This document shows positions 24,459 to 62,074 of a DNA stretch of 64,000 nucleotides, piece after piece. Numbering within the stretch: the first letter of the stretch is position 1; the number at the start of each line of letters is the position of its first letter. The notes under the pieces are model-generated. The model saw only the letters and a program-made list of their open reading frames with translations. It was not told the origin of the DNA and made no database searches. Both the position numbers and the translations under genes were made by a program. This stretch comes from Owenia fusiformis (Eukaryota), in NCBI GenBank assembly GCA_903813345.2, contig CAIIXF020000001.1, positions 5,022,001 to 5,086,000 on the forward strand, in the 5' to 3' direction.

Positions 24459-25464
24459 CTGGAATCAATGGAAGACAGTATGTAAATGTATATCATAAAA
24501 GTACAGGTTGATCCGAAAACGTCAACTTATTTATTCGCTAATAATTTCTTTCACTGCTATGGGTTTCAAAACCATACAGTGAGGCCAATTATGTAATTGT
24601 TCCCCAGAATTTCATTCAGGTACATTCGGCCAGTGTATTTCTTGTTACATGTGCATGAAAACAGGGATTTTAATGGTTAATTTCAGTGGCAGAACTTTCG
24701 TATCTAGTTAACGACACTTTGATTCGCAGGTACAGACAAACGAAATCACCAATTTGTAATACAAAAGATGTTGGTCATTCGACCTGGCGTTTACTTAAGT
24801 ATGATCTGTCATATAATTATATTAATATGCGTTATATCGCGAATTACTCTAATTTGTATATAAATATCAAATTGCTTCCCGACTGTGAACTAAATTAAGT
24901 ATTGTGTTGAAAATTACATAATTTGGGTCTCTTATAGGTATGAGTCTAATCCGAATAATTCGAATATAACTAGAACCACTGATGGAAAAAATTTGAAAAA
25001 ATTAGTCCAGTTTCTCCAGTTATTATATTTTTGAAAGACCTTTTTTAACAACATTAGCAAATATAGACGTGGTATGGCCCACGAAGAAGGCAGAAGAAAA
25101 TTATTGTATTTGATATGACAAAAACCAGCACTCGGCAGAATGTTTACTACGATTACCTTCCAATGCATATATGTGTAGAGGAAGAGTTTCAAGATGCTCC
25201 ATTGACGGAAAAACAAATGACGCAATTTGCAACAAGGTTCTGATCCTATATACATCGGGATAACAGTAGGTCAAATGGTAAAGGGTTTGGAATGGCTTAA
25301 TTATATTTAAGGAACATTCATGTTGTGCAATCTGTTATTGGTTCTTGTCTATACTTAATATAGCTACGATATTAGTCATGTGTTAATTGATATGACTTAT
25401 ACTCCAGTCATGTATGAGATGTAACTAAGCAATGAGGACCAAACATCACTGTACGGCGACTCAC

Positions 25465-25605
25465 CGCTTTGTAGGTTCGTTTTTGTCCCGCATGTTTTCC
25501 ACTTCGTCCCTCCATTTCAACATGTACAGAATATATAATATCGAAGAAATCTTCCACCACTGCCACACGTTTGTAGACCCTGTCTTCGTCTGGAGCATCT
25601 TCAGC
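25465..25605 (-). CDS. NOL4: NOL4-family exon 2 (AEDAP...KRVAVVEDFFDIIYSVHVE...GKHAGQKRTYKA)
   Basis: Near-identical to the NOL4 motif RVAVVEDFFDIIYSMHVE...KHAGQKRTYKA; ttgcag| acceptor, |gtgagt donor, 141 nt, phase 0/0. Confidence 0.95.
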
Positions 25606-28600: not shown

Positions 28601-30047
28601 ATTCGTTCGATTTAAGTTTTTAGGGGATTTTGAAATGTAAATGAAACAATGTACACCTTCGGCATCATTCATTATATACTACAAATATATCTTGATATCA
28701 ATTGTCAAAAAATGAATTTCAAGCGATTTTAGCATCAAACAAATTGGAACAACCGATAACCCACACTACTCACACGCGCAATCACAAATTACTACACACA
28801 GGTATACGTTAGTTTTAGTAAGGCCCCAATGGAAAGCTGGCAACGTTTCTATACATCGCTCTCTATCGCTTGATAAGTGAAGTAAATGAAATAATTTAAA
28901 ACAATATCCATGATCTCATAGGCCTTATTGTGCTGCTCGTCATTCTATTATTTTTGAATAAATATTTCAAAGACAACAAATAGCTTCAGTTAGGACAGCT
29001 CAAATGAAGATAAAGCCAATTTTTCTACTACCATAAGTATGCCATTATGTATATCCTTAACTAGAGAGCATTACATTAACGCATATTAGTAAGTCGTGTT
29101 GGGTTGATTCAGTGCTAAAACCATCGAGGAAGAATCTGGAATGAATACACTGAAAAACCAAACGTACATTTTTCTGATTCGAAAACCAATAACCAATAAG
29201 TCCGAAACAATCACTTCTTTAAATGCCTTTGTATACATGTCCCAGCACGAAAGTGGCGTAATTCATTTTGAAAATTCTGACAAAATAGTTATCTTCCTTT
29301 CTCATCCATGACTGTGTCGATAATTAAAGGTCATTATCGGTAAATTAGCAGAACTTCGGATTTGATAAAAGGGTGTCCAACAGCGTCCATACTGGTTTAG
29401 TCATTTAGTCATAAAGAATGGCGTGTATGATGATCAAATTAGTTTTTTTGGATACTACTTTTCAATGTCAGAATATGGACTATTACTTTTACACCAATGT
29501 TTTCTTTCAGGCGTACGAAATATCTCGCTGGATCCATAAGTGGATCTGGAAATTGACAAAGGACATACATTATTTATCGACACCCCCTTTAGCCCTTTTC
29601 CGAAAATTTTGGGCAGTTTTCTCAAATGGGCCCCTTTTTCCAGGAGAGTCCCATATTTTCAAAACGTGGTACCTAGTTCTGAAAATGAGGTTTTATTTTA
29701 GCCCTAAAATGAAATGAAATGAAATGAATAGTGCCCCAACCCTTGAAAGGGATGGGTGTGTCCTCTAAATAAATGCGTCACAGGTATCAAGATAAACATC
29801 AGTTATCGTAGGGCACACGCTCTCTTATCCTATTGTATTGAGTCAACAGCTTTGCCGCATGTACAAAATGATTTATTGTATTTGTATGATGCTCTAAACA
29901 CAAGTTGAAAGTAAAACAATTACATTAGTGAAAGCATATTGTATAACAGGTCATAAAGGTCGTGTAATAAATACGGCGCATTGGGTCGAGTTCAGCTCAA
30001 TATAATAGTTTCAATGGGTAATAGATCGATTGAATAATTGATCTTAC

Positions 30048-30344
30048 CGTAACCTTTGTTGGAACGTACAATAGCGGCTCCTCCCCCTCAATGCGTGTCA
30101 AACCGGCCCGGGACCCAAGACGGAATCCTTTGCTTTTTACCCAGAACTTAAACTTGGAGTTATCAGTGGATTCCTGGTCCAGTTCCAATATTTTGATTAT
30201 GCGTTTATATTTTTTCCTAGTCACTGTCTTAGTTTTGCCATTTTCACCGTAATTCCGTATTGACCACGCGTGATATGCGTGGAATATATCGTCCCGTGGA
30301 GCAGTCGATAGCATCTCGCAGCCGCTACCAACTTTCGCTGTCAT
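30048..30344 (-). CDS. NOL4: NOL4/NOL4L-family protein, coding exon 1 (MTAKVGS...LYVPTKVT)
   Basis: ORF contains NOL4 N-terminal motifs (YGENGKTKTVTRKKY, DNSKFKFWVKSKGF, LYVP); ends at ACG|gtaag donor, 297 nt, phase 0. Confidence 0.92.
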
Positions 30345-30639
30345 CGTCCCGAATGGATAGCTAAGTGCGATATTCCTTGATTTCTAATATTGACTAAATT
30401 ACAGCTAGTGGTCTTACGGGATAGATATTCAATTTTCCTAACATGGACAGAGGCACTGATCCAGAATCCAGACTGACGTGGGATGGTAGGAGTTGCCGCA
30501 ATAATCTATGCTTGTCTCTATAGACCCGCTGGCCAATACTAATTAGCGTTGCTGAACAAAGGTAGTTGGTATTAGCGTCCAATCAGAGTGGATGCTACCA
30601 GCTGTCCCGAGCACGGAAACAACCACATATTGCACCAAC

Positions 30640-30810
30640 TATCGATCGGTTTCTATGCTGCCTTCACTGTCACGACATGGCAAGATTGGGCCGGAGATTG
30701 CTCGCTTAATTTACTAAGCGCGTGTCAGGCGTGTGTCTCTTATTCGCGTGGCCTGCTCACGACCTCGGACGCAGCGTCAAACAGCGTCCGATTATTTAAA
30801 CGTGAATGAA
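30640..30810 (-). promoter_or_regulatory. Probable NOL4 core promoter / 5' UTR start
   Basis: CpG/GC-rich patch 300-450 bp upstream of the ATG with a TATA-like TTTAAATA on the minus strand at ~30793-30800. Confidence 0.35.
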
Positions 30811-32139
30811 AATTGTTGATATTTACACCTTTTAATCACTGACCAAATCCCTCCATGCTTTTGCTATATTAAAATGGAATGACCTGTCAAAGACTCATGA
30901 GAAAAGTAAAAAACGAAGGAATCACCACAGCCTTTGGGGTGTTGGCTTGGCATACCATGAACATTCCTTTCCTTATTCCACATCAATTGGGAATATATGA
31001 CGATAAGAGATGACGAAGTAATAAATTGATCTGATTTGCTAAAATACATTATTTTAGTATCCCGTCAAGAAAGAAACCAATCTGTAAAAATATGCGATAC
31101 GCGTAATCAGTGTAAACACGTTAAAATAGAATCTCAGGAAACTGATGAACTGCTCTGGGGTGTTTCTTTAGAGCCCAATTGCCACTAATCCTGGGATAGG
31201 TGACTTTCTGTTTGACCTTTGGCCTGGGGCTGAGACACGAGAAGTTCAGGATTGGGACAGGATAGTTGTTTAGTCCATTTAACTAATTTACAAGTCCTAT
31301 GTGAATTAATTACATATACATCTCTGAAATAGACTATACACCGGCTGTCCAGCTCAGGTCAATGTGAGGGGACAGCAGATAGTGTTGGCAGGTGCATCGC
31401 TAACGTTATATAGGGGCTTCATAGTGGCCCAATTACCTATTGTTCTAAACTGACGAGCCATTCAATAGTGACAATTCAGACCATTTTAATGCCCCGCCTT
31501 CGTATTTTCTTCTGACAGACCACAGCAGCGTCCGATATGTAAATGAGGTGGGCAGATGGGGGCCGTTGACTTTGGTTGATAGGCCTCTCAAGATTAAACT
31601 ACAAATCTTGCTGACCTTTGGTCGCCAGATTTACCTGCAATATATCCGAGTAATTACTTGAATAGACAGAATAATAACAAAGCACCCTATCTGGGAACTA
31701 AAACGCCAGCGTTCCCCGATGGGTCATTAGTGAGAGTTCATCATTCAATTTATTAATTAGTGGATAATCGAATTTTTCTTAATGTATTCGTAAAAAAGTT
31801 TGTTCTGAACCGCCAAATAATTCGTCAGAAGGACAAAGAACTGCAACAGAGTTATATAATTATTCTGAACAATGCAATACTGATACTGTATATTTGTATC
31901 TGACCAATCGATACTTGATTACACCGGAGCAAACACTGAATCGTGCAAATATCATGTTTTACAAAGGTCGTTACTTATTACGTAATAGCTGAGAAATAGA
32001 TCGTAATACGTCCAACACCTTCATGAAATACCATATTGACTGAGCATTTGATATTATTAAATCATCGTGAATTGGAGAAGTGAAAATTAAAGACTGGGCA
32101 GTTTTGAGCAATATTGACTGACTCCGGCAGGTGATTCCA

Positions 32140-37780: not shown

Positions 37781-38207
37781 ATGAACGCTCCCACACTTCA
37801 CCACTACCAGTCGCCCTTTTCTACGAACTGGCACCAGGCCCCCGGGCTTCAAAGGACATCTATATCATCTCTGTATGGAGGTGGTGGCTTTCCAAGCTAC
37901 CATTCTGTGGCAGACTGGGGATTAAGTCACAATACTTCAACATCAAGTATGAGCACAGGGGGACACAGTAACAATACAGCGGCACATCTACTCTCCAGGG
38001 ACCACCCCGCTTCCGAGTTTCTCGCCACTGCACAATCGCACCCAGTCAGTGCCTCCCATGGACACTTGTCGTCAGTTGACGTAAATGCTGCAACAGTTCT
38101 GGGCTACAACAATCCTCTCGAGTCAATGTTTAACGCACAGTTTAATAAAACAAGCATCCCACTGTCACCAAAATCCACAACAGCCTCGTCAGATTCAAAG
38201 TCAGCAG
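37781..38207 (+). CDS. Mox: Mox/Meox homeobox protein, exon 1 (MNAPTLHHYQ...SSDSKSA)
   Basis: Ser/His-rich ORF; first in-frame ATG at 37781; CAG|gtgag donor in phase 1 fits exon 2. The start codon and the link across a 13.6-kb intron are inferred. Confidence 0.8.
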
Positions 38208-38652
38208 GTGAGCCTATGTTAAAACTCACACCAGAAATATGTTACTATTACACAAAAAGTTGATTAGGCTAGCTAAAAACATTATGACATCGCAAATCCT
38301 GCGGTAAAATGATTGAAAATTAAATACAGATTCATACAAATGTACTAATATACATGGTGTAGAAATCAAAGAACCATGGAATATTAATGCAACAATCATC
38401 CGAGAAAAAAGGCTCTGAATGTCGTTTATATTTCTGCCGTAACTCATTCTGAAAATGCCACTTCGGTCTAAATACTCTAGTTCAAGAATTTCTGAAATTA
38501 ATCTCAATTATGAAGTTATCTGACATTTTATAAACACTTTTTGAGGATAATCGATTTTCTCCTTTACAGATACCACTTTGAAAATGTATTTTCCCGCCAA
38601 TTTCAAAATACGCATTTTTTTTTTAAATGTAAAATGTTTTACAAAAAAATGT

Positions 38653-39627
38653 AAAATATGATTCGAATGAGCATTAATAAGAATTTCCGTGTACAAGAGG
38701 TTCGTTAAATAAAAACAAAATTCAAATTACAAAATTCAAATCACTTTTCTCCGTTTGGGTACGTCGGATATACGAAAGCTATTTATCTTATGTGCTTATT
38801 GCTTTGATTTATAAATCAACACGAGGAGCGATGTGTAGTTGATGAATATAATTTGTTGTAGAATTGGAGTTTGCAATAGTCCTAAAATCAAAACTTTGTT
38901 TAAAAACATCTTTAAACCCGAATTAAAGATATAGCAGTCTGATAAGAATCTTACCCTTTATGTTGTTATAAAATAGCCCTCCATTTATAACAAGCTAAGG
39001 CAGCTGATAATACATCAATTGCAGTTTTTAAGAGTACATTAATATATAAACATCAGTTTGCTTATATACCTAACATCATGAAAAGGGACATGGATTTTCT
39101 GAATTTCCATCCAAATCAGAAATATATTTTTGAAAATATGAAAATATGATTCGAATGAGCATTAATAAGAATTTCCGTGTACAAGAGGTTCGTTAAATAA
39201 AAACAAAATTCAAATTACAAAATTCAAATCACTTTTCTCCGTTTGGGTACGTCGGATATACGAAAGCTATTTATCTTATGTGCTTATTGCTTTGATTTAT
39301 AAATCAACACGAGGAGCGATGTGTAGTTGATGAATATAATTTGTTGTAGAATTGGAGTTTGCAATAGTCCTAAAATCAAAACTTTGTTTAAAAACATCTT
39401 TAAACCCGAATTAAAGATATAGCAGTCTGATAAGAATCTTACCCTTTATGTTGTTATAAAATAGCCCTCCATTTATAACAAGCTAAGGCAGCTGATAATA
39501 CATCAATTGCAGTTTTTAAGAGTACATTAATATATAAACATCAGTTTGCTTATATACCTAACATCATGAAAAGGGACATGGATTTTCTGAATTTCCATCC
39601 AAATCAGAAATATATTTTTGAAAATAT
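38653..39627. repeat. Direct tandem duplication, 488-bp unit x2
   Basis: Sequence from 38653 repeats from 39141 with no differences seen; AAAATATG microhomology at the junction. Confidence 0.95.
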
Positions 39628-41981
39628 ATATCGACGGACCAATGATGTGAATTCCAAGAGTTTATATATCACGGTTGTATATTCCAGTTTTGAACTTTGC
39701 TTCAATTTTAAGTAAATTTAAAAACAGTTCAAACTCAGCAATTATGTTGAGCACTGTTAAGGCGCGTAAACAAAAGTCTTTCAATTAAATAATGTGTCTG
39801 CCTTCATTGATATTCAATATAAAGTGATCTACATTCTAGTTTATTTTTTCCATAGTAAATTAAAAGCAGGATCAAAAATCGTTTTCTCATTACCGGTCAT
39901 ACAAATTCAAACATAAACATGCGGATAGTTATCCATTGGGGATATAAGGTTGCTAATCTTTTGGAGGGTAGTTTAGATTATGGAGTGATCCAACCCAACC
40001 GTAACGATGGCGAATTATAAGCCGCAAAAAAGCGCGTGATTTACAGATTGGAGTCATTGATGCCTGACGAACTAGGTGGTAATGGAGAGGCTCTATTTTC
40101 TTTAGCGTAATTGGCCGAGGTACAAGGGACCATGTGATATGTGAACGGGGAAACGAGAGAATCGACATATTGTGTAAACTCTCGGGCTCTACTTAATTAG
40201 TGTATGTAGAACTTTACCAGTCATACACATCCCGATATATCGTTTTACTTTCAAAATAACGATAATGATACATAGAACGAGAATGAAAACAGTACCCCAG
40301 TCCCCCACGACGCTGTGAAAGTTTCATGCAACTTTCTCCGGGCTATTTTTGCAAATAATTGGCCTACTAAGGTGTTTCCTGAAGTAAAACAAATATGTTG
40401 CATAAACCTCCCGGTGTGGTCAAAAAAAGATCAGGGATATCTGATGATGGGCACCACTGTGAGCCTTTCGGGACAGCACACGCCAGATGTGGGGAAATCA
40501 TTTTGATTGCATCCCGTTAATAGTGTCATTAATGTCATCATTAATTTGAATATCGAAATGGGATTATCATAATTCTAAACAATCACATGTTAAGTTTTAT
40601 TTCAAAGTTTAAGAAGCTTCCATATAGATTTACTTTTTAGTTTTACCATACCTAGATCTGCATGTAGATGGATGCATTTAGAACAAATTATTTGGGGGTG
40701 TGACCTGATTATCTCAAATGGCTCTATCTACACGCTAACTAATCTTGAAACGGTCGAAGAACAACCCAAACAGTGTCTGCGACGACAGAGGTACATTTAC
40801 GGGTAAGATAACCAGGAAATATGTGTCCCATAATGCTAGTAACTCACTCAAAACATTCCACGCAAGTACAGACCACAAGAGCTGTTGAAACCTGACCAGA
40901 TTTATAGCCGAAAAAGTATAAGATATGATTGCAAAATATGCCCTACAATCTCTAAACTCTGACAATCAGGCAGTGAGCCACTGGGTGAAAAAGACCAATA
41001 TTTGTTTTCTGCGCAGGTTTTCTGCGCATCTTCTTTCGGCTGAAATATTTAGGCTATTTTCATCCCGAAATACTCTCCAACTATCAAAGTACTCGTAACC
41101 TACGTCTGGCGAACTTATTGAAGAACATTTTAAGACCGAATTCGTGGAAATTGATCAATTATATCGAGTATAACTTGCCGATTGAATTTTTTTTCGAAAA
41201 ATTGATCTTCCCTTTTTCGTAGATTTTGACTAAACGCCGACTCTGCCCCGATTTTATTTTTTAACTAAACGATTGCCATTAATGTCATGTTTCCAAATAA
41301 CGTAAAACCACAAGTGAGCCTTGAGTGGCCCGATGAAGATACACTTTTTCTTTTTCAGTTTTGTAGATTTATCGAAAAAAACAAGATGGCGGCCGAAATA
41401 ATTTTTCGAAAAGTCCAATTCAGAATATATTTTCTTTGATACTAACATAAACAGAGTCGTATTCAATTTTTCGAGGTTATAATTACTAAATATAATGTTT
41501 ATAACTTCTATTCCAGCACCAGACGAATGCCTAGGTTCGTGAATCGTGTAAAAATCGTCCATGATTGATTATTTCAATTTTTCAAGAATTTTTTTAGAAT
41601 GTTTTTGTCATTATCCGCTTCGTACATGTCATACCATCAAAAGACTAAAATTGTCAAATGATATATTGTTATTCTTCAATTAGTGTTTTGAAAACGGTTA
41701 TCGTACACTATAAAAAAGTTCTATATGTAGAGTTTTCAGGTGAACCATGGGTTCCAGATGGTGGTAGTCCATGGGTGAACAGAAAGTAGAAAAGTCAAAA
41801 CTGACTGGGAGTCATGTACACCACAGAGTGGGTAAAGGCTAGAGACCAAGAACTGAACCAAATAATAACGACAAAACAATCGATTTGGACACCAAGGGCT
41901 ACTCTTTCCATCAAAAAGTTAATGTTTTCTTGACATAGACATGTAGCACTGGGGCTAGTGCAGTAGTGTGAAGACTAAACT

Positions 41982-42469
41982 AGCATTTCATATTATCAGC
42001 ATATTGTGCACTAAGAAAGCAAGGGGATTCAAATTCAAAAATATTTCTCTATCTATGTATGCGTACAATACTGAAATGCTATCCTACATGGATATTATAA
42101 CAGAATAAAGTATTTGCTTAGTTCATATACAAAGTTATATATATTTATCAAAAGATCATGATTTCCATGTCTTTGCTAAGCTTTATTTCATGGAATGTTA
42201 TCATTATATATTGTGATATACTGCAGCATTTCATATTATCAGCATATTGTGCACTAAGAAAGCAAGGGGATTCAAATTCAAAAATATTTCTCTATCTATG
42301 TATGCGTACAATACTGAAATGCTATCCTACATGGATATTATAACAGAATAAAGTATTTGCTTAGTTCATATACAAAGTTATATATATTTATCAAAAGATC
42401 ATGATTTCCATGTCTTTGCTAAGCTTTATTTCATGGAATGTTATCATTATATATTGTGATATACTGCAG
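41982..42469. repeat. Direct tandem duplication, 243-bp unit x2
   Basis: AGCATTTCATATTATCAGC... starts at 41982 and again at 42225; no differences seen. Confidence 0.95.
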
Positions 42470-45400
42470 TGAAACTGGTAAAAAGTTACATATTTCAGTA
42501 TTTGTAAAATCTTTGTGAATACTGAATAGTATACAGATTCATATATCATTAATGCAAAATAAAAAAGCAGTTGATTCTTTTGGGCTCAAATGTACACACA
42601 AAACATAGCACCTTTCATACAAATGTTCATGAGCTATTTGAAACCTGTATAAAGCAAAAAATAAAACAATACTACATTTGCAATACAAAAAACTTCCTAA
42701 ATGCCAATTAGCATGTTCCCATACCAAATAATTTTTACAAAGTACTTGTTAAGTGTATTTTCACCCAAAAGAAATACCAAAATGTTCAAATATAGGTCAA
42801 ATGTCATCATTTGAAGCAAAATATAGAAAATGCTAGAACTTGGGTAAAATGTACTATAGTAGCCAATGGCACACTTATGTGAATAACAGTACAAAGCAAT
42901 AATGAATTGCCTCAAATACCATGATTGTTTAGAGAATTGCACTTTACTTCAGTATTCGTTACACACATGAACATCTTTCTTTATATTTACTTGCATAACA
43001 TGGCTTTACTTGTAAATACCCATATATCTGTAAGCCATAGATATACCATTGCATAAATTTACATATATTTGTACCTAATGCTTCATGTTATACTAATATG
43101 TTATTCAAAATTTTTGTATTGACTTCTGACTATTTCTAACTACTGAAACTTATTTTCTCGCTTACATATTTTCATTGATTTAATACACGTTATATAACAC
43201 AGGGCTTAATAATAATAACCGCCTGTAAAAAAGGAGTAAATGTTCATATAATCATCTGAGCAAGATCATCTGTCATATAAATTTAGCAGAATATGCATGT
43301 ATTGCATTCAGGTATATATTTTTGTAATTGCACAGATTTGAATATAATGTTATTTTACTTAAAGTTTGAGAGTGATATCTTTATATACTAGATTTATATG
43401 TACATATACATTGTTTATATTGCAAAACCTTTTAATACCTGGGGAACCTTTAACATTATTTACCTGTATAACAGTTTGACACAGTTTGGACAGTTTACAC
43501 ATTCTTCAAATAACAGTAGTGTTTACAAATAAACATGAATTCTTGTCTTGATTAGAGCTGTTTTAAGTATGACATTTCCTGTTTTACAAAATTATATGTT
43601 GCACTTGCAAATATAAGTTTACTGTAAAATACAAATGCATTATATATTCTCATGGTGCATTAAATCTGCAATTTCATGACTGTTACAGACAGCTAGACAG
43701 CAAACCTAGTAGTAAAAAAAATTAGGACAGCTTACACTAGACTAGACTGCAGTACAATATGTTCTACTTTACTTGTACACATATGTGCAAACATGGCAAG
43801 GTTTTTTCACTTGAAAATCATGGACAAAAATGATTCCAATTTATAAAATAAAAAAGCAGCCCATGACTAGTTTGGCTGATTCTGAGTCCTGACTCTCTAA
43901 TTAATTGACGGATGCCTTATATATGCCTGATATACCTACATGTGTATCAAATAACAAAGAAAATATCAGAATAAACACTCTTAGTCATATCAACATAAAT
44001 TTGTTTATTTGGTCAAACATATTCAAATGAGATTCATCATTTTCAAAAAATTAGTAAAATAAAATCTTAACTTCTTACTTAACATAACTTTCTTATAACT
44101 TTGTATTTATGCAATGGGATATCAAACACGTAAAATATGATCTAGGCTAATTAGTAATTACCCACAATTACACAGTCCAGTGTTGAGTTGTAGTGAAGCA
44201 CATGACTGCTGTGGGTTGTTTCTTGTCCAGCATTCAGGCATTACAACAACTGAAAGAAAAAAGTTTTTAAATAATAATGCAATATACATGACAATAATGT
44301 GTTAATTGTATGGATTGTTATTACTAGTTATTACGGACATTAACAAGCCACGGGCTATTCTTTTTTGAAAACTATAATAAAACAACTTGTAAAAGTTGAA
44401 TTAAATTGGCAGATATAAGTCATACATTAGAAAATTACCAACCAAAATTACCAGTTTAAGCATTGGTGTGACCACTGATGAGTTTCAAAGGCACAAATCA
44501 TAAAGACAATACAATATTTATTATTTTCTAATAAGTATTATGTTGATCGGAAATTTTTTGCTAGATCCCACATTAAGCGGCCATTTTGAATTTTACGAGG
44601 CCTGAGACAGAAAAATTATTAATTTTTGCAATATACTTTAGATTTTTTCTAATTTGAGTATAATAAAGCTATACTTCAGAAAGATCTCAAAATTGACAAA
44701 AATTCCTGTTTTCTGACCCCCATACACAAAATTAAAATTCATACACTTTAATACAGTAGAACCTTTACTAGTAAACATGTCCTATTGAATCCCTACCAAC
44801 AGTTAACCTTTCTAGTTAGCAAGCGAACACTTCTCTGTCAAATCCATTCCATCAGTTAACATTTATATTTGGCAAAAGTTTTTTCTCCCATTGAGTCCCA
44901 TATTAAAACTTATTAATTTTAATACAGTAAAACCTGCGCTAATGAACACCTCTCTATTGAACCCCTGTAGACAGTTAACAAATATTCATTGTGCACAGGT
45001 TTTACTATATTCACATACTTAACAAATAACTACATACCATTAATCATCAATGAATATGTGGCACTAAACAATCAGCAAACCCCAATAGATCCTGCCTATC
45101 ACCACTGCATCCCATCTATTTCCACTGCTTCTCACCCCCTGCTTCCTGCTGGTCCATGTGTGGTCCCCATCTTCGGTTAGTCCATGCCCACCTATTACCC
45201 GCCTTCCAAAACCTAAATTTAACAGAAAATATGTTACTTAAGTTTAAAAATGGAATGCATGCTTTTGATATCTATAGTACACAACCTTAAAATCTGTAGT
45301 AAATATGTGCAACTGATAAACAGGTGACTTGAACACAGAAGTATACTGAACAATACAGGTTGACACAATGTTATTTTTCCTATGATGCATAGTCCTGGTT

Positions 45401-46521
45401 AATACAAAAACAATCAATCCTTATATTATTTCAGTATTTTAGAGTAAAAACTGTATTCTGTCACATAGTATTCAGGGGTGATGCTAGAATTGCCAACAAA
45501 CAGGTACAGGTATATCTTAGCAGGATTTTATTATTATGTTTTAAGAATATAATCACCTCCAAGTCCAGTATGAATTACTGATCAGCTTCTCCAGCACAGC
45601 ATAACAACAGGAAAGTCCATCCAACCTTAAACAAACAAAAAAGAATGATAATAACATTGCAAAAACCAAACTAGATATTCTCCCTTTTTAAGCTCTGATT
45701 CAAATGAAGCCAGAAGGGCTCACATTGGATATTTTACCCAAAATGTTTAAGGACCTAGCAAGAAAAGAGTACAGTTAAAGAAAACAAAGAATGAAATCCT
45801 GTGCTAAGGGCTGATCAGACCCCTCCCTTCCAAGGCGATTGCTCTACCACCAAGCTTTTCCCTATCAACATTACATATAACTGAAAACTAGACCCTAAAC
45901 TAGACCATACTACTGTATATTTCATATTTATAATTGAAAAACTGAAAGGTGTATACTGGTATATACATATAAATGTGTATTTTGATTTCATATTCTTCAG
46001 CAAGTTTTAACATCAAAATCATATAGGCTATTAAGAATCACATGTTCATGTTTTAAGTGAGCTTGATAATCTAAGGTTGGATTATATGTAAAACTCAATT
46101 ACAATTTTATATTTTCACCAGTTATTTTCACAAAGTCGCCTTTTGTTTTTTCAAGTTTTCCATGTTAAATTTATGATTTCCATTAATTTAGCCTGTTGTT
46201 TTCATTTACAGCCTGCTGTGGGAAATTCTAGTGAAACCTCTGTGTATGAGTTGAAAACCAATATGTTTCTACAATGACTCTAGAATACCTTTGCTTGTTT
46301 GCAATTTTATCATTCTTGGATTCACCACTTAAAATGCATAGAAATAACATACCTTGTATAGCACCTAGAGTGATAATACAGCATTGCCTTTTCTCAACAT
46401 CCACTGGTCAAATGAATGATAATAGGATTGAGGCCCACCTGAAAAAAAAGAAAAATAGTAATAATTTGAAATAAGAAATTGATTACATGAACAAATATTT
46501 CCATAGCCTGGCATATAACAT

Positions 46522-46796
46522 ATGTGCGCCATTCCCAGACATTTCGAGAAGGGGGCATCATCAAAGATTTTTTGGGCTCAAAAAAATTTTGGGCCCGAAG
46601 AAGGCCTTAAGGCCCAAAAAAGTGGGCCTTGAGGCCTTATTTTTGAATTCAAGACTAAATTCTGAAGAAAATGGCCCTCAAAATTTGGGCTTTAAGGTTT
46701 CAGGGGCCCAAAATTTTTTCCCGCACGAGCACAGAATTTTTTTTCTCTGACTGGAAATCTGGCCCGCCCCCTTGATGTTTCCCAGATCCGCCCCTG
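46522..46796. mobile_element. GC-rich short insertion (MITE-like) ending GATCCGCCCCTG
   Basis: Sharp composition shift with many GGCC/GGGCCC motifs; CAGGGGCGGATC-type terminus on the minus strand; left end and TSD unclear. Confidence 0.5.
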
Positions 46797-47131
46797 ATGT
46801 ATGTGGATACAGAAGATAAGCCAGCCGAGCAACAACAAAAAATGGCCCTTTTGAGGACCAACTCATACTACCAAAAGAGCATTGTATTTATGAATTAGGC
46901 TAGGCCAATATATCTACATAGGCTTATGATTAAAATCAAATAAGCCTACATATGTGTTGGCTTAAGTGTGAATGTTTGACTGATGAGAGACAATTTAAAA
47001 AGTATGATAATTACCTTTGATGGTGATGAGTGATCGATAGCTGCATCTCGTATCACATAACTATATGGTAGTATATCTGAAGACCACACCTAAAAAACAC
47101 ATGAAACTTTCAATTTTGCACATGCTATTTA

Positions 47132-47955
47132 TTGCAAGACTTATGCCTGGCACAACCGTCACCATGTTATTAAGTGTTTTTAAGTTTCGCAAGGATCCTG
47201 CCATGACTGTGGTATTGTTATCATGAAAGCGCTGGTATAAACGTGACAATGCTATATTATATTGCAATGCATATCATGACCGTGGTAATGTAAAAGCCTT
47301 ATTTTTACAGTGACAATGTTCACATTCTTGAATGAAATTAGAATTTCATTTTGTTGAAATGAATTATGAGTTAAAGTAGTAGTACATGTAGTAGTTGTCT
47401 AGATTAACATATTTAAGGTAGATAAACGATGAAAATTTTCATTACAGTATTCTCATGCTACTAAATGTAATTTAATATAACCATTGTTACGGTCATACTG
47501 TGCTTAAACATCATTACCACGGTCATGACAGGTTTTACAACCATTGCCTCAGTCATACAAGGCTTTTACATTACCATGGTAATGACAGGCCTTGCAATAT
47601 AATATATCAATGTCACGGTCATATCAGGCTTTAACGTTACCACGGTCACGACAGGCCTTGCAATATAATATAGCATTGTCGGTATACCTACCCCCATAAA
47701 TGTAGGGTTATATTGAGTTTTTTTTAAATTTAAGACATTTGTTTCTCAAAATAATTATTTTGACAAACAAATGTCCTAAATATAAAAAAAAAATCAAAAT
47801 AACCCCACATTTATGGGGGTGGTACTACGGTCCTGGTAGGATCCTTGCGAAACTTAATAAAAACACTATAACATGGTGACGGTTGTGCAAAGCATAAGTC
47901 TTGCAACAGATAAGGTCTCAAATTTTGACGGTTGTGCCAGGCATAAGTCTTGCAA
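47132..47955. mobile_element. Foldback/MITE-like inverted-repeat element with a nested ~140-bp palindrome (47686-47824)
   Basis: TTGCAAGACTTATGCCTGGCACAACCGTCACCATGTTAT...TTTCGCAAGGATCCT pairs with 47837-47905; the terminal 28 bp is duplicated at ~47926-47955; inner ACCCCCATAAATGT...ACATTTATGGGGGT. Confidence 0.8.
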
Positions 47956-50863
47956 CAGATAGGGTCTCCAATTTTGTTGAAAATCGGATCAAGAACTTTG
48001 GCTTTTAGTACAAACTCCTTCAATTTATTCGATAAATTGGTAAACCGGAAGTCATATTATCGGTTTTATTTCGTATATATCTCGAAAGATACCTGATGCC
48101 CCGTCAAAACTACTTGAAAATAACGAAAAACGATATGTTTTGAAACGAATTTCAACCATTTTGAACACCAAAGTTTAATGGCCCGCTGAAGATATGGTTT
48201 GCAGCGTACTCTGGTCTCATCGACTCAAAATTTATGTTCGTTGTTCGGACCCTCCAAAAACATACTTCTTTTCAAAGCATCGCAACGTTCTATACACCAA
48301 ATTGAAGAAGAATTTCTTACCTTTTAGAAAATTCAGGTCGCCATATTCATTCTACATGGAGGGGATCCCCTTTTGACTAGAAAGAGGTCGGGGTCGAGAT
48401 CTCGAAAAGTATCGCGAAGGCGCGAGATGTGCCAAATTTTAAAGAGATTTGGAAAAGAAATCTCTCTAAATAGGGCTTGGCGCAGATGACGGCCGATTGC
48501 CTGAATGTGTTAAATTTATTGAAGCACAGTTGGTATAAAGATAGAAATCCGATTTATAATTTCAATCCAGATGCCTAAAATTTAATAAAGAATGGACTGT
48601 TGTTGTGACCTGTAGTCATATTCTCCTCTCCTGGTGAATGGTTCAATGATACAATGGTACAATACATCTCCTCTAGATCTTGATATACATACACTTGGTA
48701 TAATAAAATGTTTGTAAAATGCAATCCGAACTTTTTATGAGAAATATGTCATTGAATTCGATATTCAACATATTTTTTATCTGTGTTCTATTTTCTCACA
48801 TTCGCCAAATTGTGTTTTCTATACTTTTCATGGTTAAAGTTGTCATCTTAGTGTTACTATCGTGATTAAATTGAAGTTGTCTGTATAGTTTTTACGTTTG
48901 CTTCTGCATCTCGTTGGTAAATAAAAGTTAATTTCCTTGGGGTCAGAATCTAGTACAGATGAAGGTCCGATCTTTTAAAGAAGTTAAATGAAACTATCGA
49001 AGAGGATATATGTGTACTCATTCAAATAATACACACAGACTCTACCCTCGTGTAATATGGGTTTGGGGTAGAACATACATTCATGCATTTATAAATCTCC
49101 ATTTTTGAATTATACTCTACAATTCTTTATTGCTTGAATAATGAACTGTCAACATGCTTTTCCAATGTGTAGCTAAAGGAACAATCCGGAAAATTGGTAG
49201 ATTCGATGCACCTTCACAATTCTTTACATTTTGCCCGAAAACATTTCTTAAATAAATGTGAATGAGTTCTGGATTATGATCTATCTTTAACATATCACAT
49301 ATAAGAAAATATGGACTTCAACAACAAAACTACGGGGAATTAACGCACAGACAAAATCAAAACTTCTCGTAAACTAGTGAAACAGATATCAATACATATT
49401 CCCTATGAATTAACTCAAATTGAAGTAAAACAATCTTACATTTTTTTGTTTATTTTGGAGGAAGCGATCTAGTCTAAAATGTATTTGCTCAATTTATGAA
49501 AGAGGATTCTGAACTATAGTAGCGGAATCTGAAATTGAATCTTTGGTTTATAGTTCCATCCGATGCTTCGTTTATCAAAGTTTTGATTTCATCATTGATA
49601 TACGTATTTAATTAAAATTTAACATAAGGTTAAAACCATCATTTGTTTCACAAAAACACTTCTAGGCATGTAAAAGTTAAAACACTAAATTATAGTTTAT
49701 CCAGTTGAGAAAAGTAACTAAAGAAAACAGAGAGATAAGAGTAACTATGCTGTCAACAGACTCACACCATTGTAACACGAAGAAACTGCTCGTAGCAACC
49801 AGACCAGCGAAAACACAACTGAATTTGTCAACACTGCGCTCATATTTCTTCTGGTTTCCACACAGTATCAATCTAACGTGTTTATTTTATAAAGTCTAGC
49901 AAATCGGAAATGGACTTTTAAATGGGAACGTGTGGACAGAACAGAACAAACTGTACTGTAATTTTCCGGATCGTGTTTCTAATGGGATACTTGGGGTAGT
50001 ACGTAATACTCCAGTGTGAGATTAACTACCAGACGTTTCACATAAATCAACTAATGGATATGCCTCTCTGACTAGCGATAATTAATAAGAAATTGATGCC
50101 GCGTACTTAAAGAAAAGTTAATGTTTCTTATCTTAATACCATATCTTGTTTTCACACATTTTGTGTTAAGAAGGTCTTTAGGTTGAGTGGATAAAATGCT
50201 GAGTTTCTGTCTTGATGGAACGGGCCACCAATAAACAACCTCTGACAGATAAGAATATCTGCTAATTATAACTAATTCGAAAAATATTTACAACCCAAAC
50301 ACGTGTATGAACCATTTGAAAAATATGATGAACGATTTTGCAGATTTTCGTATGATTATCTTGACTGACTATTCGTCAAAATTGAACAGCAAGATTGCCT
50401 CCAAGACAATTGCATTATTAGCAATATAAAACACATCGCGATATCCTTCTGAAATCACTATTTTACTGGATATCGAAAACCCCATGTAAAGTAATCGTCG
50501 CGTTTTTAAATCTTTAAATAAAAATCGTACTAAAATCGTACTACATCATCTTCCAACCGGTTTAATCAACATATATTGGAACGTAATGATTACGTAACAA
50601 GTGACGACTTCTCTATATACTTAGAATGTTGATTTACGTTCTCATTTAACATATATTATTTATTTTTATATCACTATCATATTCCTCACTCTCTGATTGG
50701 TCCATGTAATACACGTGACAAGCGATATCAAATGATATTCACCGGTCCGACTATAAGTCCAGTGTAATTTTAATTTTATATATACCCGGGAGTACATTGT
50801 TATGATTAATTAGACATCAATATTTTGTTATTTCATCAATGTGAGTGAGGAACAAAATGATAA

Positions 50864-51006
50864 AACAAATATTTAATTATATTTTCGGTGAATACCTGTG
50901 ACTCTTTCTCAAGATTATATTCCACTAGCCCTTTGGGCTTCGTGCACGTGGAATATCACGTGTGAAAGATGCACGAGTATTCACCTCAATAGAATTAAAT
51001 ATTTGT
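50864..51006. repeat. Degenerate ~140-bp hairpin in Mox intron 1
   Basis: ACAAATATTTAATT..GGTGAATAC..TCTTTC..ATATTCCAC..AGCCC TTT GGGCT..GTGGAATAT..GAAAGA..GTATTCACC..AATTAAATATTTGT. Confidence 0.75.
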
Positions 51007-51783
51007 ATGATAATATGTCCGGGTCAAATTAAAAATATATCTCATCTTTACCAAAAAAATACCGCATGTGAAACAAAAAGTCGTATAACTAAATTGAACC
51101 TCATTGATGACAAAATAAATAATAGAGAGTAAATGTTAAACTAACTATTAATTTAGCCAATTGTTTAACATCGCTTATTTAAAACCGAAGGTATTACATA
51201 TTTGTTTTTTCTTATTTTTGAACAAAAATTATTATAACATCGTGTAACTATAGTAGACTGAGAAACAAATACTAATTAAAACTAATCAAATTGGGACCAG
51301 AGTCTCATTAGAAGCTAATTACATTATATTATCTGGTGGGGTCATTGCATTTGTTTGATTTTTTATTTGGCATATAACCATAGTGTAACATTTAATAAAG
51401 ATGAAACAAATTGTTGAGTGTTGATATCCAAATACAGGAATAAAAATTTAAAAGTCCAAAATTAACGGACTGCCTCAAACTTTGCGTTTGCGATTGTGAC
51501 ATTTGTGATAATGAAAAGTAACGTGAGAACTTCCCAAATGATTATGGCCCAACAGAATATTAAAATAAATGATTCAATGGTTCCTGATGGCATAGGGGAA
51601 GTTAGGGGAAAAAACTAAGAAAAAATTCAAAATATCTTTTAGCCCTTTGTAATTTCATTTACGAAAGTCTAGATAAAACCATTTTGTGACTTATGATATA
51701 TGCAATACCAGGTAGTTGTACATAGGTATACATTTTAAGATTTTCTAAAATCCCTTAATTATTTTACAATTTTGTGACTTCAG

Positions 51784-51959
51784 ATTCCAATTCGGATAGC
51801 TCCTACCAGTTGGACCTGAGTTCAAAACCAAGAAAAGAACGCACTGCCTTCTCAAAGCACCAAATAAAGGAGTTAGAAAAGGAATTTTCAGTCCACAACT
51901 ATCTGACTCGACTGAGGCGGTACGAAATTGCCGTGGCCCTTGATCTCACAGAGAGACAG
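51784..51959 (+). CDS. Mox: Mox/Meox exon 2, homeodomain helices 1-2 ([59 protein letters not shown])
   Basis: KPRKERTAF and [14 protein letters not shown] are diagnostic for Mox/Meox; cttcag| acceptor, CAG|gtatgt donor. Confidence 0.97.
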
Positions 51960-53887
51960 GTATGTGGATGGATGTTTTATTTAGCACTTCAAAGAGAATA
52001 AGTAAAGATCTGAAAAATGCAAACTTCTAATTAATTATGGTGACATATTCTCTAATTTTCATGTGTAGATAAAAATGTTTGAAATCTATCGAAAGAATGA
52101 TGGATTTTGTTTTGTTTAATAGTAATAAATAAATTTGCAGAACTATGTTAAATAATCTAAATAATCTGAAAATGTTTGTGAACAGTATCTAATTCGCAAC
52201 AACAAGTTTTAAAATGATATACTACATGTATATAAGAGGATTTCCAATTACTAAAATTACTTGAGTCATCCGATCAATTACTTATGTCTTTTAGTATAAT
52301 GGTTATCTAATATGTTCCTAAATACATTAATTACAGCGGGCCTTAAATGAGTAATAACATTACATATCAAAATTTCTAAACTTTTGATAGATAATTGAAA
52401 TCTTATTTTTGCTACAAGTTTTAAACGTAATTAATATTATAAACGGAAAGTACTGAGTGCTTTTTAAAATCATGTATTTACATTAAAAGAAGTAATGCTT
52501 ATTGGTAGTTGTTAGAACAATTTAATACTTCGAGTTATTATTTGCTTGTTATGAGTAAAATAATTGAACCTACTACTAGTATATGAAAAGTAACTATTAT
52601 TGAGAAGTAACTTGTTCTGCATGTTCATATTTTGGTGTCAGAAGCAATTATGGATCATCCAGAGTCTGCTAGCAATGGGGATACTATTGAGTTTAAAATA
52701 GGGTAAAATAACGCTAAGAGATTTTCAGATTTTATCAATATAATATATATAGGTGAAGTTGAGTATAAAAATGAAGTATTTTTGCCCCATTGAGTTAGAG
52801 ACTTAGTTGACAGACGTTTTTTCAATAAAATAGTGAAAATGAAGTGATAGTATTTGACAGTATTTGCTTCTACCTTTTTAAAATTTGCCTCGCAAATTTA
52901 ATATTTGCCTCGTCAATTTTTAGATTCTGGAAACGTCCCTGTCGACTTTATTGTCAGAAAATAATGTCTAAGAATTATTTAATAACCAAATTAGAAACCC
53001 AAAGTTCCAAACCCATTAAGAAAAGCCTTAATGTTCGAAAATTATATTGAAGTAAGAAGTTGAATAAGAAGTTGTATTTTATGTCTATTGCTTCATTTTT
53101 TAACTCTGACCAATGTACATGTGCATCTACAGTATAGCTTGTCAAAAGTTTAAAGCAAGAATAACATGCGCCATGTTTATGGCAAGAACGAAGTTACCAT
53201 GTAATGAGAAGTCGAGCACACATGGTCCAAGTCATGTTGCTTTCAACACCCCACCTGGTAAAGCTATCCAGCCATGATAAACTCCTATGTGCCTATGTCT
53301 TACCACATACTATATCAATCTATAATATACACGAGGACAAGCGGGTTAGTTGACGTACTGATGTTTCTAGCACGATTTAGTAGAAGAGTTCACGATTTAG
53401 TAGATACAATATGAATGCAGATTTTATGTTTAGGTAGAATGACAAGCACGCAGTTTGCCATAATGGATCTGGAAATTGTTGTTGCGAATTAGATAATTAC
53501 CAACGTGTCGTTCTAATCTTACATTTATGTTTTAAGAAGTATATGGAAATACATGTTTGGTTACTATAGCAACAACATGAAAGAGATCAATTTAACGAGC
53601 TTAATTGAGTATGGGGTATCATAGAGCGCAGCGCAACAGGTTTCAACCAAGTTCTCAGCTGAGAAAACACCCAACAACCACATAAGTTTGCAAATTAGGA
53701 ACAGCTTTGCTAGCAGCTGTACATTCAACATTTAACTCTAAATCCCGACAATTAGTCAGTCATCAAGTCGTATATTTTTGATTTGGCCACTCATTAGCAC
53801 CAAATTAATTATATCGCTTGATATTATCACATTCTTGCTTTATTGTTGATGACAACTACTACTCCTTATTTTATGATCAAATGGTGT

Positions 53888-54598: not shown

Positions 54599-55730
54599 TT
54601 GTTTTGAGATAGATAATCTTGAAAAAAGCATTTTTAAACATCAGATGGTCATTTCTGTAAGCACTTTCATAAAGGAAATAAATAAAATGTACATGGTGCT
54701 TTATCAGTCATATTTTTCGTATTATACCAAAGATTGAGAAGTAAATTCTGTTATATAAACTTTTACCAAATGGAGAAAATTCCCTAAGAATACTAGTATT
54801 ATATAATAGACCATAACATTTAGCCTTTTACAATCACCCATAAATATGTCACACATCGTATACATCTGTTCTAAATGTTATTTTATGTTATATATTACCA
54901 TGACTTTGTTACTGAACAAAATGATTAGTTACTATTCTATGATGACTATTCGAGCGGTAAAATCATCTGAAATCATGTTTTAATTCGCTTTTGGCACAAC
55001 AATTTTTTGCTCGTACGTGAATGTTTATATCAAACTTCCCGGTGTCAAGGTTTAAAACAGCCTTTGCAACAGGTATAAAGCATTTAAACATAGAGGGGGG
55101 GGGTCATGGGGAAAATGCAAATATTCGCAAGCTGTAATTAATGACTTATACTCAGCTCAGTGAATTCCGTAAGACAGTGATTTAACATTTTAACACGGAT
55201 AATGATAATATTAGAAAAATATTGCTTACTCTATGTCAAAAACTATATTCACAAATCAACTTAAGTATTTGAAAATCAAAATGCTTTATAAACAAATGCA
55301 TGATAAATTAATAATAGCAGAATATCAAGAGAAATTCAAATTAGGTCACTTTTCATCAGAAAATGGAATCTCATCCTAACTTTTTGTATCCTGAATTTAA
55401 TGGTTCAAATTTTATTGTATGTCTTGCGTTTGATATTTTTGAAATATATTTATCCACCACTGTATTATGTACATGTTTCTAAGAAATTAATAGAGTAAAT
55501 GAATCCATGTCATTAGTAGTTAATTTTGACCTTCTCAGAGAGTAAGTATCATGGACCAGATATGCCAGCGGACTCGTGGGAAGTGAAAACCAAGATCTGA
55601 TATGTTAAACTTATGTTCAAAAATTCAAAAAGTGTGATTTGAACAACTATTTCCAAAATGCTAAAATCTATTTTCTAGGAGCCAATCTTACATTTATAAA
55701 CATGTTTAATGACATAACTTTATTTTGCAG

Positions 55731-55883
55731 GTTAAAGTCTGGTTTCAAAATCGCAGAATGAAATGGAAACGTGTAAAGGGGGCGACACTAGCCAAAGACA
55801 AGGTGACAGGACAGTTGAAACCACTAACGATACCAGCCCCCAACGCCACTATACTGGCATCTGATAGTGAATCACCTAGATGA
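55731..55883 (+). CDS. Mox: Mox/Meox exon 3 (VKVWFQNRRMKWKRVKG...SESPR*)
   Basis: ttttgcag| acceptor; recognition helix WFQNRRMKWKRVKG; TGA at 55881-55883. Not in the ORF track. Confidence 0.97.
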   Translation, partial: VKVWFQNRRMKWKRVKGATLAKDKVTGQLKPLTIPAPNATILASDSESPR

Positions 55884-60562: not shown

Positions 60563-62074
60563 CGAGGGTTGATCCAAAAGTTCTCCACCGTTTTATCTAA
60601 AAAAATTATTTCTTGGTGAATTTTGTTCAGACTTGGTCAGAAGCAACATGAATATGATAGCTTGGTATTGTATTAATATCATTGAAAAAATATAATATTA
60701 ACTATGTCATTTGGTTACCATAGTAACAGGACAACGAGGAAGGCGGAGCTGAATATAATCACTGTTTATTACAATTTTTTGTCAAACAACATGGTATTAT
60801 TACAGAGTTTTAACAAGGGGTTTTAACATTAATGAAGGCTTTTATTTGATGCAATATCAATGTTCATTCTCCTTCAAAATGGTCCCCACCATGGGCTATG
60901 CATTTATTGCATCATTTTATCCAATTATTGAACACATGCCGAAGTCCATTCTCAGCGACTGAATACACACTGTTGGTAAAAGCTACAATCATCGACTCAT
61001 CATCTGCAAAACGAATCCCACGGAGGGGCTTCTTAGTGTAGCCAGTACTGTGGAGATGGATTGGATAGGCCAAAGAAGACAAAGGTACAGAAATCTACAT
61101 CTAAAGTGATGTTTATCATCTTTTTCGACATCCACAGAATCATCCTCGTTCACGCCGTGCCAACTGGAGTTACTGTGAATTCTGCATATTATTCAAAGGT
61201 AAATTGTGAATCCCAGGTTTTGGACCCGACTTGGACCCTGTGTTTTGGACACATGACTTCTTCAATGTCTTAGTTGATAAAATATGCCTTTCCATGGTAC
61301 CTTCATAGTTATACAATATGGCATGTACATGTATTTGGGTCTATTCGTGATAATAGAAAATGAACTGAGGTATCATAATTGATGTGTTTCAGTTACTAAG
61401 GAAGAATCTGAAAGATGCCATCAGGAGAAAGAGGCCAGAGCTTATTGCAGATTGCTTCTACTTCCATCATGACAACGCCCCTGCCCACAGAGCTAACATT
61501 ACAATTGAAGTTATACATGAGCATTTACAAGCAGAACTTGTCAAGCATCCCCCTTATTCCCCAGATACAGCTCCCTGTGACTTCCACATATTTCCTGAAG
61601 CTAGGAAGCCCCTCCGTGGGATTTATTTTGCAGATGATGAGTCGCTGATTGAAGTTTTTACCAACAGTGTGTATTCAGTCGCTAAGAATGGACTTCGGCA
61701 TGTGTTCAATAATTGGATAAAACGATGCAATAAATGCATAGCCCATGGTGGGGACTATTTTGAGGGAGAATGAACATTGATATTGCATCAAATAAAAGCT
61801 TTCATTAATGTTAAAACCCCTGGTTAAAACTCTGTAATAATACCACGTTGTTTGACAAGAAATTGTAATAAACAGTGATTTTATTCAGCTCCGCCTACCT
61901 CGTTGTCCTGTTACTATGGTAACCAAATTACATAGTTAACATTATATTTTTTCAATGATATTAATACAATACCAAGCTATCACATTCATGTTGCTTCTGA
62001 CCAAGTTTGAATAAAATTCAACAAGAAATAATGTTTTTAGATAAAACGGTGGAGAACTTTTGGATCAACCCTCG
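60563..62074 (+). mobile_element. Non-autonomous rearranged mariner element with 474-bp inverted arms and TA TSD
   Basis: TA|CGAGGGTTGATCCAAAAG...CTTTTGGATCAACCCTCG|TA; 60563-61036 is the reverse complement of 61601-62074; transposase fragment in the centre. Confidence 0.95.
61037..61773 (+). pseudogene. 5'-truncated mariner transposase (C-terminal catalytic part) split by a GT-AG intron at 61199-61392
   Basis: PKK...KVM..IFFD...G.TVNSAYY then LR..IRRKRP...HHDNAPAH...HPPYSPD.APCDF..F...W.KRC.KCI...GDYFE; splicing AAG|gtaaat...tttcag|TTA joins both ORFs in frame; HTH domains and first catalytic Asp are missing. Confidence 0.9.

Follow-up and report, generated by a model that had tools for sequence, protein, structure and literature searches.

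A probable non-autonomous DNA transposon with a spliced non-coding RNA cargo in intron 1 of the Mox-type homeobox gene of Owenia fusiformis

Gene-like cargo in transposons bounded by terminal inverted repeats (TIRs) has been documented mostly in plants. Passages of PMC8903248 and PMC10741241 describe the Pack-TYPE elements of plants, among them Pack-MULE and Pack-CACTA elements such as those of the Tpn1 family, as having gene-like interiors that contain introns and can be transcribed. Here we describe a candidate animal case, a 7537-bp segment at positions 40967-48503 of a 64,000-nucleotide stretch of the genome of the annelid Owenia fusiformis (contig CAIIXF020000001.1, positions 5,022,001 to 5,086,000; hereafter the window, in whose coordinates all positions are given), which an earlier note made from the sequence alone had taken for a transposon-like module. 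We place the probability at roughly two in three that this segment is a non-autonomous TIR transposon, moved in trans, that forms a recent and polymorphic insertion antisense in intron 1 of a Mox-type homeobox gene and carries a long non-coding RNA (lncRNA) as its cargo. The segment resembles the Pack-TYPE elements in being non-autonomous, with TIRs, a target-site duplication (TSD), no transposase and a gene-like, intron-bearing interior that can be transcribed. It differs from them in its annelid host and in its contents: Pack-TYPE elements have plant hosts and hold fragments of coding genes between long, family-typical TIRs, whereas the cargo here is a whole-looking spliced non-coding unit that extends to within 13 bp of both ends.

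A second point of reference is provided by lncRNA and small nucleolar RNA (snoRNA) host genes with CpG-island promoters. These share with the segment a multi-exon structure, the lack of an open reading frame (ORF), robust expression and a 5' end that is rich in CpG and bears ETS- and YY1-like motifs, but the unit described here is enclosed in mobile DNA that has TIRs and a TSD. The element yielded no Rfam family at threshold, snoRNAs included.

The window is animal DNA with a G+C content of 34%. The 147-residue translation of 37781-38221 matches, at 100% identity, a 251-residue homeodomain protein of Owenia fusiformis (an unnamed product) whose exons fall in the window at 37781-38206, about 51783-51962 and 55728-55880, and whose homeodomain is of the Mox type; the 'longer' protein search queried with Mox exon 1 returned no match. 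The segment lies between these mapped exons, in Mox intron 1 as the earlier note had it, and makes up 55% of the approximately 13.6 kb of that intron. Four public sequencing runs labelled Owenia fusiformis were compared with the window over 39650-50149. Two of them, X24 (DNA) and X21 (stranded RNA), consist of raw reads; the other two, X2 and X18 (the latter RNA), consist of contigs, and for X2 no library type is recorded. All RNA evidence comes from these compared runs, runs X1, X3-X17, X19 and X20 having been left out.

The extent of the inserted unit is fixed by an empty site in another individual. Record 7 of the X2 contigs (1916 nt, depth 22.4) covers 39799-40963 and 48504-49018, which meet at the adjacent record positions 741 and 740, and it reads GAC-AAT-GTGTT across the joint, without exactly 40967-48503 and one AAT. 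This junction represents a real allele, because a k-mer assembly cannot join sequences through a 3-bp overlap without spanning reads. The empty site GACAAT/GTGTT had been predicted in the earlier note and was thus found, with 40963 joined to 48504; the discrete unit proposed there is also what the contig delimits, breaking as it does at exactly the ends 40967 and 48503, and the imperfect TIRs flanked on both sides by AAT are present in the window. The two termini, CAGGCAGTGAGCC on the left and CAGGCAATCGGCC on the right, match at 10 of 13 positions, the first six perfectly (5'-CAGGCA...TGCCTG-3'), and between the flanks, CTGACAAT and AATGTGTT, only 3 bp are duplicated. As in class II TIR transposons, the inverted repeats stand at the exact ends of the inserted unit and the duplicated target is single in the empty site. 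The features that define the insertion are as follows.

40967..48503, unstranded: inserted element, whole, 7537 bp (X2 empty-site contig and X18 end points)
40964..40966, unstranded: left TSD copy, AAT (window sequence; a single AAT is kept in the X2 empty site)
48504..48506, unstranded: right TSD copy, AAT (window sequence; X2 empty site)
40967..40979, plus strand: left TIR, CAGGCAGTGAGCC (10/13 complementary to the right end)
48491..48503, minus strand: right TIR, CAGGCAATCGGCC in minus-strand reading (reverse complement compared with the left end)

A brute-force count in the window identified 6267 configurations with a 3-bp flank repeat, inverted ends matching at 10/13 or better and a spacing of 500-15000 bp; the combination of TIR and TSD is therefore not significant as a cue on its own. 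For ends fixed independently by the X2 empty-site contig, the probability of an inverted match of at least 10/13 is approximately 3e-4, and it is because the contig provides this independent fix that the TIR rises above chance. Metagenome scans with each terminus returned 0 matches.

Placement among the superfamilies of DNA transposons was approached through the termini and the TSD. The earlier note had compared the segment with Academ elements, for which it gave YR...YR termini and a 3-bp TSD. A TSD of 3 or 4 bp is given for AcademX in a section of PMC10045372, and the 3-bp duplication fits that range as far as the TSD, the one feature compared, goes; the element is without a transposase or XPG nuclease, and its 3-bp TSD fits Zator equally well. 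CACTA/EnSpm (CMC) elements are described in part of PMC10741241 as having a 3-bp TSD, short TIRs and a large size, some of them with host gene sequence. The present element is like them in TSD, TIR length and size, and unlike them in its termini, which read CAGGC...GCCTG and not CACTA/CACTG...TAGTG/CAGTG; because it holds no transposase, a CACTA placement by that route is not available. PIF/Harbinger elements duplicate a 3-bp TAA or TTA (passage of PMC10741241). That superfamily was rejected, since the length of the duplication fits but the triplet is AAT. Elements of the hAT superfamily produce a TSD of 8 bp and were rejected as well, because only 3 bp are duplicated here, although the CAG with which the TIR starts resembles hAT ends. 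An LTR (long terminal repeat) element or a retroposed copy was likewise rejected, as five introns are kept and terminal direct repeats are absent.

The interior of the element contains a spliced transcription unit on the minus strand. Five junctions that read CT..AC on the plus strand, and hence GT-AG on the minus strand, were found in X21 reads and in an X18 contig; they are spanned by 60, 21, 18, 11 and 9 X21 reads, all 119 of which (119/119) are first_mate_on+ with none on-. None of the five splice joints occurs in the X24 DNA reads or in the X2 contigs. The unit comprises the following exons and introns, in the direction of transcription.

48321..48503, minus strand: exon A, the first seen (X18 record 6; joint 47087>48319), containing GAATATGGCGACC at 48336-48348 on the minus strand
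47090..48320, minus strand: intron 1, GT-AG (9 X21 reads and X18 contig), holding CCGGAAGT at 48045-48052
47015..47089, minus strand: exon B (RNA junctions)
46439..47014, minus strand: intron 2, GT-AG (11 X21 reads and X18 contig)
46353..46438, minus strand: exon C (RNA junctions)
45626..46352, minus strand: intron 3, GT-AG (18 X21 reads and X18 contig), with a high-copy repeat at about 45815-46208
45557..45625, minus strand: exon D (RNA junctions)
45213..45556, minus strand: intron 4, GT-AG (21 X21 reads and X18 contig)
45038..45212, minus strand: exon E (RNA junctions)
44250..45037, minus strand: intron 5, GT-AG (60 X21 reads and X18 contig), with a high-copy repeat at about 44545-44955
40967..44249, minus strand: terminal exon F, 3.3 kb (X18 record 1 and X21 depth)

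The main 3' end of the RNA lies near 42.4 kb, where a minus-strand AATAAA occupies 42425-42430; X21 depth is 30-56x over 42450-44199 and 3.6x below 42450, and RNA depth is 0 in the flanks at 40000-40699 and 48750-50149. The cargo of the element is a spliced long non-coding RNA with no credible ORF. The element has no ORF longer than 104 residues, and in the spliced transcript of 3871 nt the longest ORF is 104 residues and the longest one spanning junctions is 68. Pfam gave no match at the gathering score for any of the 43 submitted ORFs (stop to stop, 50 residues or longer), a protein search with the 102-residue ORF at 41254-41562 revealed no homologue, an Rfam search of 38000-52000 yielded nothing at gathering score (with one weak histone stem-loop match), and a tRNA scan found 0 genes. 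These results bear out the absence of a transposase and the transcribed, non-coding nature of the cargo, both of which had been claimed from sequence. The inward-facing promoters proposed in the same note fare less evenly. Exon A does lie in the CpG-rich right end, and X21 reads in the opposite orientation reach 3-8x over about 41050-43500 in a library whose junction reads are stranded 119:0, a hint, but only a hint, of plus-strand RNA starting in the CpG-rich left end. The RNA contig at the right end, however, extends past 48503 by at least 77 nt of sequence foreign to the Mox intron, and a start site within the element is therefore only putative.

The RNA and contig data also indicate that the Mox site is not the only home of this sequence. 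X18 contigs match the window to exactly 40967 (record 1, position 441) and exactly 48503 (record 6, position 185), so that the copy seen in RNA shares sequence up to both termini, and then continue for 440 letters on the left and 77 letters on the right. These extensions are not Mox flank, the depths in the bins 40700-41049 (18.2) and 48400-48749 (11.8) being those of the element part alone. Splice sites at the element ends were considered as the cause of the match stops and rejected, as there is no GT or AG in register. On the DNA side, the X2 flanks represent the empty, diverged haplotype only (all flank differences 22.4/22.4), and X2 contigs from the element have depths of 178-642 with 0-2 differences per 334-520 nt; X2 contigs cannot prove the absence of a filled haplotype. 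Taken together, the X18 and X2 data indicate that the segment is also present at one or more sites elsewhere.

Most of the RNA comes from such a copy. In the window, 41982..42469 is a perfect tandem duplication of a 243-bp unit (2 units), whereas a single unit is present in the X18 RNA contig, in which the joint 41981>42225 skips 243, and the duplication is private to the window copy. RNA reads carry a letter other than that of the window at 41046 (5/5), 43250 (43/45), 44222 (46/57) and 45194 (37/38). Because of the single 243-bp unit and the non-window letters in most reads, the RNA is assigned mostly to another copy, and transcription holds for the element as such rather than for the Mox copy.

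The copies are closely related. They diverge from the window by approximately 0.25-0.3% (X18 shows 8 differences or gaps over 3213 nt and X2 shows 6 over 1999 nt), whereas the allelic flanks diverge by 1.7% (20/1165) and 7.8% (40/515). Since the element copies diverge far less than the allelic flanks, the insertion is young relative to the haplotypes. For copy depth in X2, only single long, near-identical contigs were used, and summed bin depths were excluded as copy numbers; on this basis the two ends have depths of 323 and 642 and the interior 179-273. The X24 reads, some tens only, give approximately 1.4x inside the element (41050-44199) and approximately 0.8x in the flanks.

The composition of the element sets it apart from the surrounding intron. 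The observed/expected ratio (o/e) of CpG is 0.94 in the left flank, 1.56 over 40967-41700, 0.30 over 41701-47980, 1.39 over 47981-48503 and 0.94 in the right flank; in the core (42001-46500) it falls to 0.185, with a TG+CA o/e of 1.35, and 8 of the 11 bins of 500 bp in the window with a CpG o/e below 0.35 lie within the element. The two ends concerned are listed here.

40967..41700, unstranded: CpG-rich left end (o/e 1.56), located past the main 3' end of the minus-strand transcript
47981..48503, unstranded: CpG-rich right end (o/e 1.39), the promoter-like 5' region of the minus-strand unit

What the earlier note had counted by eye, about five CpG over 42480-43920, is exactly 5 (o/e 0.17), and its two motifs are where it placed them, the YY1 consensus CAAGATGGCGGCC at 41382-41394 and the ETS-type CCGGAAGT at 48045-48052. 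Besides the YY1-like motif, the left end carries a small hairpin (41010-41028) and six occurrences of TCGAAAA over both strands within 40967-41500, and ATGGCG motifs at both ends of the element point inward. According to passages of PMC11292947, methylation in O. fusiformis is mosaic and covers the bodies of constantly transcribed genes as well as transposable elements, the latter being unusual for annelids. The CpG-poor, TG/CA-rich body would fit a transposable element or a constantly transcribed unit that has been methylated in the germline over a long time, and the CpG-rich 5' region of the unit would be unmethylated in the germline. Because CpG decay is slow and the insertion is young, this landscape presumably predates arrival in Mox.

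The exons of the minus-strand unit are low-copy, and high-copy repeats are confined to its introns. The repeat in intron 5 (about 44545-44955) reaches an X24 depth of approximately 965x in 44550-44899, and that in intron 3 (about 45815-46208) approximately 554x in 45950-46299. Intron 1 contains a nested foldback or MITE-like (miniature inverted-repeat transposable element) repeat at 47105-47976, with inverted repeats I1-I7, a palindrome centred near 47755 and a central hairpin that is almost perfect (47687-47823). In Rfam, the hairpin of this foldback (47677-47833) has sub-threshold matches to plant MIR-type families, and X24 depth is 29-80x over 47000-48049. Both 44545-44955 and 45815-46208 are short repeats with an X24 depth hundreds of times that of single-copy sequence, and many reads there have joints that go back along the sequence (for example 44676>44545, with 6 letters between), and both intron repeat families therefore also occur in tandem arrays elsewhere.

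These observations are best accommodated by a cut-and-paste (class II, TIR) transposon of 7537 bp with 13-bp imperfect TIRs and a 3-bp AAT TSD, which would have inserted recently into Mox intron 1, antisense to Mox, and would still be polymorphic. Since it encodes no transposase, the element must presumably be mobilised by a transposase from elsewhere. Its cargo would be an RNA polymerase II unit on the minus strand with a CpG-rich 5' region, six exons, five GT-AG introns and a 3.3-kb terminal exon; the CpG-depleted body would have been acquired before insertion and carried in with the element, and most of the RNA in the public runs would stem from one or more copies located elsewhere.

Several points weigh against this interpretation. 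The TIR is both short and imperfect, and an intra-window BLAST of 40467-49003 found neither end a second time in the 64-kb window; the two ends showed no similarity to each other beyond 13 nt, and only internal tandem and foldback repeats appeared. Neither an autonomous partner nor a further insertion with a TSD of its own was seen, though no whole-genome search was made. Among the pieces listed for these runs, none independently shows a filled junction at the Mox site. The RNA contigs continue in other sequence beyond both ends of the element, which suggests that the copy giving rise to the RNA forms part of, or sits inside, a longer transcription unit, because a self-contained element with an internal promoter and terminator is not expected to be read through. 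Copy depth is discordant, the X2 element contigs standing at 8-29x the flank depth as against approximately 1-3 copies in X24, and a variant at 41690 that is present in 10/10 X24 reads has a single-copy-like depth in X2 (23.7/520.7).

The strongest rival explanation, in our view an unlikely one, draws on several of these points. It holds that there is no transposon family and that an internal 7.5-kb piece of a longer host lncRNA gene at another locus was mobilised or duplicated once; the event, unlikely to the same degree, would have been effected by a transposase acting on two fortuitous inverted sites or by double-strand-break repair, with copying into the Mox intron. Such an origin would accommodate the extensions of the RNA contigs, of 440 nt at the 40967 end and at least 77 nt at the 48503 end, the X24 DNA depth, which fits 1-3 copies, and the predominance of non-window letters among RNA reads at 41046, 43250, 44222 and 45194. 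It also counts in favour that the unit looks like an ordinary gene, with five GT-AG introns, a body poor in CpG behind a CpG-rich 5' end, and high-copy repeats only in its introns. Repair, however, would leave the 10/13 inverted match at fixed ends to chance (P ~3e-4), and the clean 3-bp duplication is the signature of a transposase. Cryptic TIRs used by a transposase escape this objection, but this is a rare type of event, and the X2 data, with 8-29x flank depth and ends above the interior, look like a family with deletion derivatives.

A further interpretation, which we regard as doubtful, departs from the favoured one in what the mobile unit is. It would be a complete lncRNA locus in which both CpG-rich ends, presumably unmethylated, are promoters and convergent transcripts of the two strands overlap over a methylated body, and it could then be seen, with equal doubt, as a gene becoming a transposon or as a transposon constructed like a gene. 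This arrangement predicts the hint of plus-strand RNA over 41050-43500, the inward ATGGCG motifs at both ends and the occurrence in X2 of a single-copy-like variant beside a high-depth one. Convergent promoters, if real, could serve to control the element through small RNAs or methylation and could, upon insertion, import a ready expressed, methylated chromatin island into a Mox intron whose flanks have a CpG o/e near 0.94.

Microhomologies of 3 bp are typical of end-joining deletions. The segment could accordingly be an old resident of Mox intron 1, and the empty allele a 7540-bp end-joining deletion at the AAT microhomology, in keeping with the 3-bp length and with the single empty-allele contig seen. 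This is very improbable, given that X18 contigs share both end points yet continue into other sequence, that the segment has high depth in X2 though the site shows the empty haplotype only, and that it is at least sixfold less diverged than its flanks. The steps in CpG o/e at the ends (0.94 to 1.56 and 1.39 to 0.94) would also be left without a cause, and the inverted termini would be a coincidence (P ~3e-4).

Helitrons leave no TSD, insert between A and T, begin with 5'-TC and end with 3'-CTRR, and have a 3' hairpin. A rolling-circle element of this type with captured gene fragments merits even less credence here, even though one register does give host A/T flanks with a 5' TC and a passage of PMC4224331 describes the capture by Helitrons of gene pieces containing introns. 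No register unites the 5'-TC, the 3'-CTRR and the A/T target (the A/T register ends in TGAA), a 3-bp duplication and inverted termini are present, and a strong G+C-rich 3' hairpin is lacking (z -1.6). That the segment was merely misplaced in the Mox intron in the source assembly of the window, as the lack of filled junctions among the listed pieces of the four runs might suggest, is scarcely credible, because a misjoin would not give rise to inverted termini flanked on both sides by AAT at precisely the point where the contig of another individual is continuous.

If the segment is the non-autonomous transposon that we favour, a DNA transposon has been active recently in O. fusiformis, a reference annelid for developmental and methylation studies, and is present or absent among individuals. 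The element would bring a full spliced non-coding unit, with a CpG landscape of its own, into a homeobox gene, and the pair of filled and empty alleles would offer a natural comparison for effects on Mox regulation or local methylation. It is also a candidate lead to the responsible transposase. For annotation it carries a warning, as what could be recorded as an 'lncRNA in Mox intron' would be mobile DNA with reads largely from another locus.

Additional observations concern the surroundings of the element and the samples. Just upstream of the insertion, in Mox intron 1, a 488-bp unit is present in two tandem copies that are 99% alike (38644-39627). In the left flank, 39948-39973 is covered by 35 X21 RNA reads in one orientation, all with the same 4 differences from the window, the source of which is probably a related repeat expressed elsewhere. 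The very few X24 reads show approximately 9-10 differences per read on the flanks (39650-40966 and 48504-50149) and approximately 2 on the element; this run may represent a diverged lineage of O. fusiformis, with the element conserved better than the intron that holds it.

Elsewhere in the window, minus-strand ORFs of 139 residues (25411-25827) and 128 residues (30000-30383) have no Pfam match at threshold, and the highest G+C content, 0.44, is found at 30001-31000. A 141-residue ORF on the minus strand (2517-2939), rich in proline, glutamine and histidine and with no Pfam match, may represent an exon from an adjacent gene of opposite orientation. Downstream of Mox, a plus-strand ORF of 134 residues (61369-61770) has a sub-threshold match to DDE_3, a Tc1/mariner-type transposase domain (E 4e-5, 23.9 bits against a cut-off of 28.6), and is probably a decayed mariner-like copy.

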